Positions 12 to 46,385 of a stretch of DNA of 64,000 bases are shown piece after piece; positions within the stretch are counted from its first letter, which is position 1, and the number at the start of each line of letters is the position of its first letter. A program made the position numbers and the translations under genes. The DNA is from Escherichia phage T4, in the sequence record NC_000866.4. One strand, written 5' to 3'. The notes under the pieces were generated by a model. It saw only the letters and a program-made list of their open reading frames with translations, was not told the origin of the DNA and searched no databases.

Positions 12-2189
12 TTAGGCCGCAAGGGCCTTCATAGTTTTAGCGATTTGGGAAACTTCATCATCACTTAAAGAGTTGCGATAACCGATGAAGTCGGAAACAA
101 TACGGAATTTCTTGGTAAACTCAGCAACCATTTTATCACTGTTTTTTGAAGCATTATTTGATAATACATCAAAAAGATTAGTTACTGTCCAAATGTCATG
201 ACCGATGGTATCTTTTCCACCATTAAAATATACACCCTGTAATGAACTAACCATATTAGCGAGTCGTGTATATTCTTCAGAAACTTCATCTATACTGAAG
301 TACTTCATCATAAAATCTAACTCAGGATACTTGATAATTTTATCAATATATCGTTTAGCTGAACTTGAATAACCTACATACTTATCATAATCTACATCAT
401 CAAAAGCATCTACATATAAATCACGCAAAGCTTCAAAAATACATTGGCACTGACCGAGTTCTTTTACCTTTTTCTGTAAAAGCGGACGAATAACATAAAA
501 TTCATTAATGCCAATAAGATTAGCCATACGAATCAAAATATTCATAGATGGATGACAAAGAGATGTAGTACCATCCATAGAGAAAATATCAGAACGATGC
601 ATATACGCTACATAACCAGTAATTTCATCTGCTTCTGATGTGAGGCGTAAATAATTCCTCTTTTCCCAGCGCCCGTCTTTAATTTCAAACTTAAACGCTG
701 TAGCAGCTTTAGGACGAGGAGCTTTACTTTTAACTACCTTTGGAATATAACTTTTTACTAAAGCTTCAATTTCTGACAAATAATGAATGTTAACTTCATC
801 ACTTTCAAACATCGCCATAATATCAGGAAGCAAATCAATCTGCGATTCTACTTCTGGATTAATAAACAGAAGACGTTCGTTATGATGAATATTCAAAGTG
901 TTATTAAATTCACTATCATCTAACGCACGTGCTAATCCACGGACAATATTAACACGATTTTTAATATTATCAATAACGATATTAATTTTTGTTGTATTAA
1001 TACCAAACAGACGATAACTTGATGCAACGGCTGAAGTTTCATGACTTTGCTTAATGCGCTTCAGTCGAGGGTCAAGATTTACTTCATACACAACTCCCGC
1101 GTTGCATAACTTACTGTCAGGTTCAAACATGCTCTGCATCTTTTTATATGACAGATTTTTAGTCGTGAATTTGACTGAATTACTAATCATATAATCTCGA
1201 GCAGAATACCCCATCTTCATCAATTCACGATATGTGTGACGAGGAGATGTAGATTCTTTAAATCGTTTTACATCTTCATTAAATGCTTTCTCACTGAGTT
1301 CTTTAACTCGTTCAATAATATTTTTACGAGTGCGATCATCCAGTGAAAGAGCCTCGCGAGATGGAGCAATATCAAGTGAACCCATTGGAAACTTAATGTA
1401 ATTCACTTCATTGCGAATGCTTAGCCAGTTACGGTCTCTAATAACACCATCGATAGGATAAACAATACCACCGTAGATAGCATATAATCCACCACGATCA
1501 GGCCAGTATCTTTCTGGATTTACACCGTAATAGTCATCAAAATCCGGAAAATAATCAATTTCGCGGTCAAGACCATTAATGATAGCCAAATCTTTGAACG
1601 GTCGCATGATATAAGAAACTTCATAAGCAAAGTTTCTAAAGTCTTTTTCTTCAACTGGAACTACGATTTCAATACCAGTTTTATCATCTGGACCCATTTC
1701 TTTTACGAATGTAGGTTTAATCTGTGGACCATCACCATCCATGTAAGCTACATAACCACGAATTTCACCTTTATGATACGAAGTAATACTAAACGTATCA
1801 GTATAACTAAACGGAGATTTAGAACCTAAACCAAATCCGCCAATAAAGTCATTAGATTCAGCTTTAGATGAACTGAAGTATGAATTATACAACCCAGGAG
1901 AATTATCATCACCTTGAATATCAAAATCACTCATACCCGGACCAAAATCTCGACAAACAAATCGTGGGTCTAAACGTCCAGGAACTTGTATGATAAATTT
2001 TTCAGGATTTCCATTAAGTGCATGAGCATCAATCATGTTAGTAATCAATTCACGGACTACTGCGCGAATCTTGTTTGTATACAAATCAGATGACAGAATT
2101 TTAAATACTTTAGGAGATGCTGTGATGCTAAATGCTTTTGATTTAGAACCATTACCAAGAATTGTTTCTTTTTCAGTGGTGATAATCAT
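12..2189 (-). CDS. rIIA: rIIA protein, 725 aa, GHKL-type ATPase-like N-terminal region
   Basis: 725-aa [11 protein letters not shown]..., ATG at 2187-2189; length and sequence match T4-type rIIA; motif [10 protein letters not shown]. Confidence 0.93.
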
Positions 2190-42445: not shown

Positions 42446-42916
42446 TTAATCATGTTTCCACACCCCATCGGTATTTGACCAAAGTCGCTGATTATCTGAT
42501 CCTCGCCACAGCTTTTTGGTCGGAAGATTTTTCTCATACTTCCCATCAATAATAACATCAACATATTTAAGCATTTCTAGTTGTTTAATATCTTCAAACT
42601 TATATCCTGTCCACAACCAGATATCTTTCTCCGGAAATCTTGCTTTAACCCAAGAAACTAAATTTGAAATCTCTTCTCGGTTCTGTGGATAAAGTGGGTC
42701 ACCGCCGGTTAAGGTAAGGCCTTGGATATACGATTTGCTTAAATGGGACGCAAGTTCTTTAACGGTATTCATAGTGAATAACTGTCCGTTACGAGCATTC
42801 CAAGTACTACGATTATAACAACCTTCGCATTTATGCAAACATCCAGTGACGAAGAGAACGACCCTACATCCAGGGCCGTTAACGAAATCGCATGGATAAA
42901 TTCTATCATAATTCAT
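42446..42916 (-). CDS. nrdG: anaerobic ribonucleotide reductase activating protein NrdG (radical SAM)
   Basis: ORF MNYDRIYPCDFVNGPGCRVVLFVTGCLHKCEGC... with CxxxCxxC cluster; ATG at 42914-42916 gives 156 aa. Confidence 0.9.
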   Translation of the reverse strand: MNYDRIYPCDFVNGPGCRVVLFVTGCLHKCEGCYNRSTWNARNGQLFTMNTVKELASHLSKSYIQGLTLTGGDPLYPQNREEISNLVSWVKARFPEKDIWLWTGYKFEDIKQLEMLKYVDVIIDGKYEKNLPTKKLWRGSDNQRLWSNTDGVWKHD

Positions 42917-43538
42917 CTTTATATTTCCAAGTATATCCCTTATGAATAGATTGAATTCCTTTGCAACATTTATAAACAGCAGAATGAAAAAATCCTGCAT
43001 TTCTTATTTCAGTTGCTCCAGTTAGTTCTATTGTATTTCCGTCTGGTGAATAGCCAATAACCGTTTTGGTGTTAAAGCGATTTCTAGAACTATTTTTGAT
43101 ATGCTCTTTATGATTAGTAGACAAAGTTCTTCCTGTTAGCCCATCAGATATCCTTTTTCCAAAATCATCAGGAAGAGTTACTTTAGACCTAGCTATGCTC
43201 ATTAGCTTCTTAGTTTTATCGCTTCTTTTTGCGCCACGCTGATTTTCAAATTTCTTAGCTTTTGCATACGCGTATTGTGAAGAAGTAACTTTTCTATGCT
43301 TACTATTACTCATTATCCAATATGCATCATACATCTTTCCACCATATATTTTAGCCAATAAATGGTGAGCAGTATAGTGGGCCTTATAAGTTAAAAATAC
43401 TAAGTTGTCTAAATCATCTGAACCACCCATACTTCTTGGAATTATATGATGAAGTTCATACCCGGCTTTAGTTTGACGGGGCTTAGATGGGTGTTCAGCA
43501 GAATTAACTAGATTTGAATAGATTCTGTCATAATTCAT
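42906..43538 (-). CDS. mobC: HNH homing endonuclease MobC
   Basis: 210-aa ORF with HNH motif (HHIIPRSMGGSDDLDNLVFLTYKAH); paralogous to mobB and mobD. Confidence 0.8.
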   Translation of the reverse strand: MNYDRIYSNLVNSAEHPSKPRQTKAGYELHHIIPRSMGGSDDLDNLVFLTYKAHYTAHHLLAKIYGGKMYDAYWIMSNSKHRKVTSSQYAYAKAKKFENQRGAKRSDKTKKLMSIARSKVTLPDDFGKRISDGLTGRTLSTNHKEHIKNSSRNRFNTKTVIGYSPDGNTIELTGATEIRNAGFFHSAVYKCCKGIQSIHKGYTWKYKDEL

Positions 43539-44809
43539 TGGTGCTTAACCCTATGCATGATTTCTTTATTTTTACCGAGATTAAATCCGCGTTCGTTCGG
43601 ATTTCCCAAATAACCACATGTTCTTCTTATGGTATTCATCTTTTTAGGATCAGTTTCTCCACAAATAGAACAAACAAATCCGTTTTCAGTAGGAGTCATT
43701 TCATGGGTACTTCCACATGTAAAACATTTATCTACTGGCATATTAACACCAAAATAATCTAAATGCTGTGCAGCATAATCCCACACGGCCTCAAGACCTT
43801 TTAAGTTATTTTTCATATCAGGAAGTTCAACATAAGAAATGTGACCACCTGTCGCAATGAAATGATATGGCGCTTCACGAGAAATCTTTTCAAACGGAGT
43901 AATATTTTCTTCTACTGAAACATGGAAACTGTTAGTGTACCAGCCTTTATCGGTAACATCTTTTACGCTTCCATATTTTTCTGTATCGAGTTTACAGAAG
44001 CGATAACACAGGTTTTCAGCAGGAGTCGAATATAAACTAAAAGCAAATCCGGTTCTTTCAGTCCACTGTTTAAGATGAGCATTCATTTTAGTTAAAATTT
44101 CTCGTCCAATATCACGACCGACAAGAATATTCAATTCGTGAATACCAATGTATCCTAAAGACACTGAACTTCTACCGTTTTTAAATAACTCAATTATGTC
44201 GTCATCAGGTTTAAGACGAACCCCGAATGCACCTTCTTGGTAAAGAATAGGAGCAACAGTAGCTTTAACTCCTTTTAAGGAACTAATTCTACACATCAAA
44301 GCTTCAAAACATAAATCCATTCGTTCATTAAATAGCTCAACAAATTTCTGTTCATTGAACTGTGTTCCAATATAAGAATCTAACGCGATGCGAGGAAGAT
44401 TCAGTGTTACAACACCAAGATTATTGCGTCCATCAAGAATTTCATTGCCAGTCGAATCTTTCCATACGCTCAAGAAACTACGGCAACCCATCGGAGAAAC
44501 AGGAACAGATGAACCAGTGATAGCTTTATTGTTCTTAGCTGAAATAATATCAGGATACATCCTTTTGCTTGCGCACTCTAGAGCAAGCTGTTTAATATCA
44601 TAGTTCGGATCGTCTTTATAAAGATTAACACCTTCTTCAACGAACATAACAAGCTTAGGGAAAATAGGAGTTATCCCATCACGACCAAGACCTTTAATAC
44701 GATTTTTCAGAATTGCTTTCTGAATCATTCGTTCAGTCCAGTCAGTTCCCGTACCAAATGTAATTGTTACAAAAGGAGTCTGTCCGTTTGAACTGAATAA
44801 CGTGTTCAC
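43535..44809 (-). CDS. nrdD: anaerobic ribonucleotide reductase NrdD, exon 2 (glycyl-radical C-terminus)
   Basis: 424-aa ORF ending ...RTCGYLGNPNERGFNLGKNKEIMHRVKHQ; ORF-track start is GTG, the true exon boundary lies upstream within 44810-44851. Confidence 0.9.
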   Translation of the reverse strand: MNTLFSSNGQTPFVTITFGTGTDWTERMIQKAILKNRIKGLGRDGITPIFPKLVMFVEEGVNLYKDDPNYDIKQLALECASKRMYPDIISAKNNKAITGSSVPVSPMGCRSFLSVWKDSTGNEILDGRNNLGVVTLNLPRIALDSYIGTQFNEQKFVELFNERMDLCFEALMCRISSLKGVKATVAPILYQEGAFGVRLKPDDDIIELFKNGRSSVSLGYIGIHELNILVGRDIGREILTKMNAHLKQWTERTGFAFSLYSTPAENLCYRFCKLDTEKYGSVKDVTDKGWYTNSFHVSVEENITPFEKISREAPYHFIATGGHISYVELPDMKNNLKGLEAVWDYAAQHLDYFGVNMPVDKCFTCGSTHEMTPTENGFVCSICGETDPKKMNTIRRTCGYLGNPNERGFNLGKNKEIMHRVKHQ

Positions 44810-45845
44810 TTCATCAATGTGTTCAGTAGAGTTCGCTACTTCTCTACCCGTTTATATGAAACAATGTAATTTGGATAATTGTCATCTAAACACAAATCTT
44901 TAATACGACTTGGGTGGAGTTTTAAATCTTTAGCAGCATCCACAAATGATTTATAGATATTGTCATTTATTTTAACATATTCTGGGACGGGATGAATTGT
45001 TATTTTTATATCTATAACATTTGGATGATTACTAACCTGTTCTTCAGAGCATTTAAGAAATTTTGCAGCTGATTTAAAACTTCTAAATTTATTTCCGGAT
45101 TTTAAAGCTATAGAAACAGTCTTTTTAGCCGTTCTACTACCAATATTATTTTTAACATGAGCTTCACTTCTACTATTATTTTTATAATGCTCAATCAATT
45201 TCTCTCGTATCTTATCTTTATGTTTTAAAGATAAGATTTTACCTTTATGGGCATTACTAAGTTTTTGCTTATGTTCTTCTGAATCCGGATATTTGTTAAA
45301 TTTATATCCACCTATAGATTTATTAAGAATAAATTCGTTATTAAAATATTTCCTAATAAGCATTTCTTCATGTTTAAGGGCCGATTCATAAGAATCAAAA
45401 ACTTGAAGAATTATCCACTTAGCTTTATAATCTTTAAGCTTTTCTTTAACAAGCTTAGATGACGAATTGTATTCTTTCCAATTTGTATCTTTACCATATA
45501 TAGTTTTGAATTTTTTAAAACCTATATAAAAAGACTTATCAGGAAATCTTACCATATAGGTAAATGCTACAGAATTGGCAATTTTTAAGCTTTTTCTTAA
45601 TTTCCATTTCATCGTTTCACCTCGTATTCATATTTATACGAGGATAAACAGCTGCATGTCACCATGCAGTTCAGACTATATCTTCAACTCTTAGAGTTGT
45701 CTGCCGTTTCGGGTCGCTTGACCCTACTCCCTTACATTCATCAGGGATAGTCGTTGGGCATTTACAGCTACTGCTGATTTAGCAACGGATTGTCTCAGTG
45801 AGAGTTTCCCGTTTTAGGCAGATTTTACATGAGCTTGACTTACGT
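44810..45845 (-). ncRNA. group I self-splicing intron in nrdD, carrying the I-TevII ORF
   Basis: About 1 kb between the two nrdD exons; minus strand contains the conserved group I element AAGAUAUAGUC (about 45700-45725) and an intron-encoded GIY-YIG ORF. Confidence 0.8.
44836..45612 (-). CDS. intron-encoded GIY-YIG homing endonuclease I-TevII
   Basis: 258-aa ORF MKWKLRKSLKIANSVAFTYMVRFPDKSFYIGFKKF... with GIY-YIG motif. Confidence 0.88.
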   Translation of the reverse strand: MKWKLRKSLKIANSVAFTYMVRFPDKSFYIGFKKFKTIYGKDTNWKEYNSSSKLVKEKLKDYKAKWIILQVFDSYESALKHEEMLIRKYFNNEFILNKSIGGYKFNKYPDSEEHKQKLSNAHKGKILSLKHKDKIREKLIEHYKNNSRSEAHVKNNIGSRTAKKTVSIALKSGNKFRSFKSAAKFLKCSEEQVSNHPNVIDIKITIHPVPEYVKINDNIYKSFVDAAKDLKLHPSRIKDLCLDDNYPNYIVSYKRVEK

Positions 45846-46385
45846 TAACTCATAAGCTTGGAATGCATCGTATACGTCTTTTTCTGTTTTAGATTGAGCA
45901 TAATTCAACGCATCAGCGATTTGCCATTTTTCTGCATCCTCAATATGTTTTGCATAGGTGCGTTTAACATAAGGAGAAAGTACTTTATCTACATTCGCAA
46001 AAGTCGTTCCGCCGTATTGGTGAGAAGCAACTTGCGCAGTAATTTGTGCCATAATTGCAGTAGCAACTCCAATTGATTTAGGAGTTTCAATCTGCGCATT
46101 ACCAAGCTTAAATCCGTTTTCAAGCATTCCTTTTAAATCTACTAAACAGCAATTAGTAAATGGAAGAGCAGGGGAATAATCAATATCATGCACGTGAATA
46201 ATTCCGCTTTCATGCGCTTTCATAATAAAAGACGGGACCATATTTTTGGCAATGTGTTTAGACACAATACCAGCCATAAGGTCCCGTTGAGTTGGAAAAA
46301 CACGAGAATCTTTATTAGCATTCTCGTTTAAAAGGTCTTTATTAGTTTTATGAATTAATCCTTCAATTTCTTTTTCAATTGTCAT
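45840..46385 (-). CDS. nrdD: anaerobic ribonucleotide reductase NrdD, exon 1
   Basis: 181-aa ORF with NrdD N-terminus; the ORF reads a few codons into the intron before the stop. Confidence 0.88.
   Translation of the reverse strand: MTIEKEIEGLIHKTNKDLLNENANKDSRVFPTQRDLMAGIVSKHIAKNMVPSFIMKAHESGIIHVHDIDYSPALPFTNCCLVDLKGMLENGFKLGNAQIETPKSIGVATAIMAQITAQVASHQYGGTTFANVDKVLSPYVKRTYAKHIEDAEKWQIADALNYAQSKTEKDVYDAFQAYELT

Follow-up and report, generated by a model that had tools for sequence, protein, structure and literature searches.

The question raised by the locus studied here is what separates the two parts of nrdD in a 64,000-nucleotide (nt) stretch of Escherichia phage T4 DNA (record NC_000866.4), which we call the window and in whose numbering coordinates are given unless stated otherwise. 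The minus strand holds open reading frames (ORFs) of 181 amino acids (aa; 46385..45840), 258 aa (45612..44836), and 424 aa (44809..43535), and a preliminary description of the locus rightly listed nrdD as the 181- and 424-aa ORFs with the 258-aa ORF between them. The Pfam model NRDD (PF13597) matches the 181-aa ORF over profile positions 1-141 (E = 1.5e-40) and the 424-aa ORF over positions 146-562 (E = 2.7e-122), and the latter ORF also contains a Gly_radical domain (PF01228, E = 9.4e-26). Given that the two NRDD segments are consecutive, we conclude that the 181- and 424-aa ORFs are parts of one protein. The element that divides them is, with near certainty, the T4 nrdD (formerly sunY) group I intron, which belongs to subgroup IA, is 1033 nt long, and carries the gene of I-TevII in its 3' half. 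This attribution, already proposed in the preliminary description, is borne out by the annotation of T4, by a match of 105.3 bits to the Rfam model RF00028, by covariation, and by the restoration of the nrdD frame on excision.

The boundaries of the intron can be placed to the base. The close relative 310Ecol104PP lacks the intron and reads ...GCTTATGAAT/ATGAAGTAAAT... with zero gap at the T4 insertion point, and from this comparison exon 1 ends at U45848, the intron extends from 45847 to 44815, and exon 2 begins at A44814. The expected ligated T4 junction is ...GCUUAUGAGU/AUGAAGUGAA...; a boundary shifted by one base in either direction gives a different spliced sequence, and the assignment is therefore unique. 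Excision of the intron in silico yields a continuous 605-aa NrdD that is colinear with that of intron-less relatives. The break falls within codon 180 (phase 1), the 5' end of the intron follows a U that is paired with a G in helix P1, and the 3' end reads ...ACAUUG, its terminal G being omega-G. The preliminary description had put the intron at 44810-45845, which is the correct location but misses the true ends by 5 and 2 bases, and the two nrdD ORFs that it named do encode NrdD but are not identical to the exons. The 181-aa ORF runs 6 nt past exon 1 into the intron, where two intron-encoded residues (Leu-Thr) are followed by TAA, and for the 424-aa ORF the ORF finder chose as start a GTG inside exon 2, 5 nt downstream of where that exon begins; that 181 and 424 add up to the true 605 aa is a coincidence. 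In many phage records (e.g., PST, fPS-2, G8, and IME537) the nrdD exons are annotated as separate genes and the intron is unannotated, the names being nrdD-A and nrdD-B in PST and elsewhere "NrdD-like ... large subunit" together with "anaerobic ribonucleoside reductase large subunit"; the recording of the exons as separate genes is an annotation artefact.

The region 44600-46100 (1501 nt, both junctions included) is 100% identical at the nucleotide level to at least 10 T4 records, which annotate nrdD as a coding sequence (CDS) joined from two pieces; the T4 annotation of the intron product reads [quoted passage not shown] Window coordinates equal those of MT984581.1 plus 13. The gene order on the minus strand (nrdC ... 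pin, gene 49 [endonuclease VII], nrdD, mobC, nrdG, nrdH) is that of T4, and in length and ORF annotation the element does not differ from the known nrdD (sunY) intron. Since the 1980s the nrdD intron has served as a model of self-splicing in prokaryotes, of 3' splice-site selection (P9.0), and of intron homing. It has been reported to be self-splicing (PMC2988022) and mobile (PMC1865063). The T4 nrdD intron and I-TevII are already known and nothing in the T4 element itself is new; as a discovery it is of no consequence and of low interest. The use of the present check lies in base-exact coordinates for the nrdD intron and in the observation that a group I intron was recognizable from the raw sequence to the reader who made the preliminary description.

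That reader's RNA evidence was a single 11-nt motif, the conserved group I core element AAGATATAGTC, which is indeed present on the minus strand and occurs once in the window (45684..45674). A motif of this length could in principle be a chance match beside an unrelated ORF, with no ribozyme present; however, its chance expectation in the window is 0.04, and a covariance-model search against Rfam, the check that the preliminary description had suggested, returns RF00028 at 45883..45652 on the minus strand with 105.3 bits (cut-off 50; E = 2.8e-26) across the full model positions 1-253. RF00028 is the sole Rfam family detected in the whole window. Together, the covariance model and the covariation of the structure refute the notion of a chance motif, to which we give no probability.

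A P1-P9 fold is found in 45613-45845, and P1 and P3-P9 could be written out with support from covariation (Table 1). The alignment used comprises seven introns: the T4 core, the nrdD variant found in phage F1, four further introns in nrdD of Vequintavirinae/Justusliebigvirus phages, and one in thyA of Pseudomonas phage OMKO1. In it, 97.4% of the cells are in standard pairs and 22 of the 56 pairs have changes on both sides, values reached by 0 of 500 shuffles; when the 3' partners are slid by 1-3 columns, pairing falls to 34-45% and compensatory pairs to 2-4. P1, in which U45848 forms a U.G wobble with G45834 at the 5' splice site, is paired in 100% of cells across these introns and is also found by minimum free energy (MFE) folding, and P7 has a single variable pair, which changes from U-A to C-G. 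MFE folding of 45860..45613 recovers all assigned helices except the P7 pseudoknot (z = -5.6 versus shuffles). Two extra helices, P7.1 and P7.2, which separate P7 from the 3' strand of P3, place the intron in subgroup IA, in agreement with the "group 1A" of the T4 annotation. As a separate observation, the P9 hairpin (45652-45669, minus strand) with CUGUUUAU is flagged as terminator-like by a simple scan, which is a tool artefact.

The ribozyme also bears on the proposal that nrdD is a gene in pieces, in which a free-standing endonuclease gene has been inserted and the two halves are translated separately and assemble without splicing, as for nrdA/mobE of Aeh1. Such an arrangement would account for the database records that annotate the halves separately (nrdD-A/nrdD-B of phage PST, and others) and for the two stand-alone nrdD ORFs given by an ORF finder, but it is at odds with a complete, covariation-supported ribozyme situated exactly at the break. 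The break interrupts a codon, and on excision the frame is regained to the base; the sole start found for the second half is the GTG 5 nt into exon 2, which has no visible Shine-Dalgarno sequence ahead of it; and self-splicing has been reported (PMC2988022). Together, the presence of a ribozyme, a break in phase 1, and a frame that is restored exactly lead us to regard the gene in pieces as excluded and to accord it a negligible probability.

Table 1. Features of the nrdD intron locus (window coordinates unless a locus stretch is named)
Feature	Position	Strand	Description
nrdD exon 1	45848..46385	(-)	538 nt = 179 codons + first base of codon 180
Group I intron (subgroup IA)	44815..45847	(-)	1033 nt, first base after splice-site U through terminal omega-G
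nrdD exon 2	43535..44814	(-)	last two bases of codon 180, 425 codons + stop; includes glycyl-radical domain
P1	45828..45854	(-)	exon-1 UAUGAGU (45854..45848) / internal guide GCUCAUG (45834..45828)
Ribozyme core P3-P9	45652..45822	(-)	helices assigned by hand
P3	45822-17/45705-00	(-)	hand assignment
P4	45813-08/45789-84	(-)	hand assignment
P5	45803-00/45796-93	(-)	hand assignment
P6	45783-82/45759-58	(-)	hand assignment
P6a	45776-73/45768-65	(-)	hand assignment
P7	45752-47/45679-74	(-)	hand assignment; pseudoknot
P7.1 CCCU/AGGG	45746-43/45732-29	(-)	3 pairs changed on both sides
P7.2 GGGUC/GACCC	45724-20/45715-11	(-)	3 pairs changed on both sides
P8	45699-94/45690-85	(-)	hand assignment
Conserved element AAGAUAUAGUC (J8/7 + 3' strand of P7)	45674..45684	(-)	aligns with Rfam consensus GAUAUAGUC
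P9	45669-63/45658-52	(-)	hand assignment
Ribosome-binding site hairpin (P9.1 region)	45620..45643	(-)	CCUCGUAU (45643-36) / AUACGAGG (45627-20)
T4 late-promoter motif TATAAATA	45631..45638	(-)	top of hairpin 5' arm (45638..45636) + loop; ORF strand
Candidate I-TevII operator UAUGAAUACGAGGUGAA	45616..45632	(-)	14/17 identical to homing site TATGAGT/ATGAAGTGAA
I-TevII ORF	44836..45612	(-)	258 aa + stop; free-standing within intron, unfused to exon 1
3'-terminal hairpin GGUAGAG/CUCUACU	44825..44848 (44848-42/44831-25)	(-)	predicted; spans ORF stop codon
P9.0 + omega-G	44815..44817	(-)	UU (44817-16) with J7/9 AA (45671-70); omega-G 44815; read from sequence
Clustered-difference positions	44795-44816 and 45849		exon bases -2 to +19 around insertion site
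Variant intron copies	vB_EcoM_F1 locus stretch 796-1841; pSe_SNUABM_01 locus stretch 554-1598		

The catalytic core of the nrdD intron lies entirely 5' of the ORF, which sets it apart from many group I introns, and the 3' splice site is ~840 nt past P9. The P9.0 pairing that is read from the sequence here is AU/AU, that is, one compensatory change, in a 66%-identical variant intron that occupies the same position in other phages and is described below. P9.0 was reportedly first defined on the T4 nrdD intron, by Michel et al. in 1990 (Genes Dev 4:777). By inspection, a short P10 may form between UGA of exon 2 and UCA of the intron (45838-36), the equivalent in the variant being UGAA/UUCA, and the predicted 3'-terminal hairpin has a counterpart there (GCAUGA/UCAUGC) with 4 compensatory pair changes. 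We also considered a long-range pairing of loop L7.1 (GAUGAAUGUA, 45733-45742, minus strand), whose AAUGU is complementary in 5 of 5 bases to ACAUU (44816-44820) just before the terminal G; it was not adopted, as the variant lineage keeps 4 of the 5 pairs and the pairing competes with the co-varying P9.0.

Based on these elements, splicing may be pictured as follows, the catalytic steps being drawn from the intron family and the literature. The 5' ~200 nt of the intron in the pre-mRNA would fold into the ribozyme core, with P1 presenting the U.G wobble at the 5' splice site, and P9.0, the terminal G, and the short P10 (UGA/UCA) would bring in the 3' splice site from ~840 nt downstream, past the ORF. 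Two guanosine-initiated transesterifications would then join the exons and create the 605-aa NrdD frame.

The 258-aa ORF is I-TevII, as the preliminary description had named it, being 100% identical to the annotated protein of T4 records, and it matches PHROG 314 ("homing endonuclease") with E = 7.9e-29. It contains FTY (residues 17-19), a degenerate form of the first GIY-YIG motif, and YIG (residues 29-31); Y29, I30, G31, E83, and N97 are invariant in a 3-sequence alignment that includes a canonical Seg-like protein. A Seg-like relative is 33% identical to I-TevII over residues 28-154 (E = 4e-5), and all 3 aligned family members match the Pfam model SegE_GIY-YIG, the best with E = 4.1e-6. The domains NUMOD1 and NUMOD3 score just under their Pfam cut-offs, and a search of NCBIfam with I-TevII gave no match.

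We found no evidence that contradicts the explanation of the element as the T4 nrdD intron with I-TevII, and the points that weigh against it concern the modeling of the RNA and the family of the enzyme. Rfam places P1/P2 incorrectly, in that its 5'-end alignment builds P1 from exon 1 (from 45883) and treats the guide as an insertion, whereas the true P1 is UAUGAGU/GCUCAUG; the structure was assigned by hand for this reason. The covariation set comprises just 7 sequences, 3 of which are mutually close relatives. On the protein side, I-TevII itself matches SegE_GIY-YIG (residues 8-95, E = 2.8e-4) with 21.6 bits, below the cut-off of 25, and searches of the Protein Data Bank (PDB) with phmmer and with a 3-sequence profile returned no relevant relative, the only match being talin at E > 0.03. 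An AlphaFold2 model made from the 3-sequence alignment has a beta-beta-alpha-beta-alpha N-terminus but is of low confidence (mean predicted local distance difference test score 59), and in a Foldseek comparison of this model with the PDB there was no match at E <= 0.001, the top one being 1i3j, the DNA-binding domain of I-TevI, at E = 0.93. The GIY-YIG label of the preliminary description is thus suggested but not confirmed by Pfam at its own cut-off and stands by the literature, where I-TevII is listed as an active GIY-YIG enzyme (PMC2988022, Table 1); given the weakness of the tests made here, we rely on that source for both the family assignment and the enzyme activity.

Could the intron instead be competent for splicing but immobile, with a decayed endonuclease, as in the T4 nrdB intron, where I-TevIII is truncated? 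Decay does occur in a sister lineage at the same site (a frameshift in F1 and a 566-nt deletion in 215Ecol030PP), and I-TevII falls under Pfam cut-offs. However, the full 258-aa ORF is preserved here and does not differ from the I-TevII that is listed among active enzymes (PMC2988022), the regulatory hairpin and promoter discussed below are intact, and the nrdD intron has been reported to be mobile (PMC1865063). An intact ORF whose product is identical to an active enzyme makes a decayed, immobile intron highly improbable, and we retain the reading as a mobile intron with a functional I-TevII.

The region between the core and the ORF contains the elements expected to control I-TevII expression. 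A hairpin at the ribosome-binding site (RBS; -15.3 kcal/mol, z = -5.9) buries the Shine-Dalgarno sequence GAGG (45623..45620) of I-TevII, and the late-promoter motif TATAAATA that overlaps it is depleted in the window (3 copies versus 11.6 expected). Both are kept in the variant lineage, where the 5' arm has two C-to-U substitutions that are accommodated as G.U pairs. An RBS hairpin has been described for I-TevII, with regulation by hairpin and promoter (PMC2988022). On this published scheme, the hairpin in early and middle nrdD transcripts would bury the Shine-Dalgarno sequence of I-TevII, while a late transcript from TATAAATA would start a few bases past the motif, without the hairpin's 5' arm, and leave the RBS exposed. 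Given that the late promoter overlaps the 5' arm and loop of the hairpin, late transcripts would be those that expose the RBS, and the endonuclease would be made late in infection. The same region includes the candidate operator UAUGAAUACGAGGUGAA, for which the local alignment with the homing site is equaled in score by 10 of 500 shuffles. An I-TevII autorepression operator overlapping the promoter has been proposed, not demonstrated (PMC2988022), and our candidate, recognized by sequence similarity, is consistent with that putative site.

The distribution of the intron is in keeping with its reported mobility. The spliced junction region has matches in 693 phage records, of which 626 are uninterrupted and 67 have an intron at this site, a carrier being defined by a match over at least 80% of the intron's length. 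Presence or absence at one exact site is the pattern expected of a homing element. The carriers comprise 23 of T4 type (at least 99% identity) and about 44 of a variant type (~66% identity), found in vB_EcoM_F1, pSe_SNUABM_01, IME537, and ~40 more Tequatrovirus records at the same nrdD position as in T4; in three variant carriers examined (vB_EcoM_F1, pSe_SNUABM_01, and 215Ecol030PP) the insertion position is identical. The variant shares the T4 architecture of core, RBS hairpin with TATAAATA, ORF, and 3' hairpin, but is 66% identical in nucleotide sequence and 1045-1046 nt long, encodes an endonuclease with 56% amino-acid identity, and has helices that differ from those of T4 by many compensatory changes. 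An apparent absence of the group I model from the vB_EcoM_F1 and pSe_SNUABM_01 introns was traced to the default filter of Rfam and rejected as an artefact, since permissive filters give 74 bits for vB_EcoM_F1. The variant ORF is frameshifted and in two pieces in phages F1, FN, and 236Ecol005PP, and phage 215Ecol030PP (1216-1694 of its locus stretch) has a 479-nt derivative of the variant with a clean 566-nt ORF deletion, which retains the ribozyme core, the RBS hairpin, the first ~13 codons, and the 3' terminal domain. This deletion parallels the truncated I-TevIII of the T4 nrdB intron.

The exon sequences around the insertion site also differ between T4 and an intron-less relative. T4 and 310Ecol104PP have 13 differences in 600 nt, 7 of which are at -2, +7, +10, +13, +14, +16, and +19, and the six in exon 2 (+7 to +19) are all at synonymous codon positions. 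Among intron-less records, none with T4-type exon flanks was found; over its full length, the 70-nt spliced junction is matched at 92.9% at best. The clustering is consistent with co-conversion, or hitch-hiking, of flanking exon sequence, or with divergence of the target site, and a pairing constraint from P1/P10 is a possible further cause. Following the literature and the population pattern, I-TevII would cut both strands of an intron-less nrdD in a co-infecting phage near the insertion site, and recombinational repair from the intron-bearing allele would copy the intron together with flanking exon sequence. The variant lineage, the decayed ORFs, and the clustered silent changes might be a snapshot of a homing cycle of invasion, endonuclease decay, and target-site divergence, although we put this forward as a tentative suggestion that is rather unlikely to be correct; in the literature searched we found no systematic description of such a cycle for nrdD.

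Among other introns, the T4 td intron with I-TevI is likewise a subgroup IA intron in a gene of nucleotide metabolism, and the td and nrdD cores are ~81% identical over ~115 nt. In td, the ORF lies in a loop inside the core, which is thereby split; the core match there is 113 nt long, and the I-TevI ORF stops a short way into it. In nrdD, by contrast, no part of the core lies 3' of the ORF, and the 3' splice site is far off. I-TevII cleaves its target about 13-15 nt downstream of the point of insertion. For I-TevI, cleavage takes place 23 and 25 nt upstream of its own insertion site; like I-TevII, this enzyme is assigned to GIY-YIG, and it is governed by the same logic of RBS hairpin and late promoter (PMC2988022). 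A phmmer search against the PDB detected no similarity of I-TevII to I-TevI structures such as 1i3j.

Introns with cores 70-81% identical to the T4 nrdD core are present in nrdD of Vequintavirinae, Justusliebigvirus, and Vibrio phages. They have the same guide, GCUCAUG, and also lie in class III ribonucleotide reductase (RNR) genes, but contain either no ORF or an HNH ORF rather than I-TevII. Their exon-1 CDS is ~390 codons long compared with 180 in T4, which suggests different insertion sites. Carriers of such class III RNR introns include Vibrio phage F88, phage 18-1-2, and Justusliebigvirus phages.

The nearest relative of I-TevII outside introns is a free-standing Seg-like GIY-YIG gene of Cronobacter phage GAP161 (598-1449 of its locus stretch). 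Genes of this type lie directly downstream of nrdD in Pseudotevenvirus phages, and a related endonuclease is thus linked to the nrdD host gene in free-standing form too. In the window itself, a 210-aa HNH endonuclease ORF (42906-43538, minus strand), annotated MobC in T4, lies between nrdD and nrdG, its start overlapping the nrdD stop and its end the nrdG start. MobC matches Pfam HNH (E = 3.2e-6) and PHROG 655 (E = 4e-43), and its activity and target are listed as unknown (PMC2988022). Given the presence of mobC, the nrd cluster has a second homing endonuclease gene, which is free-standing.

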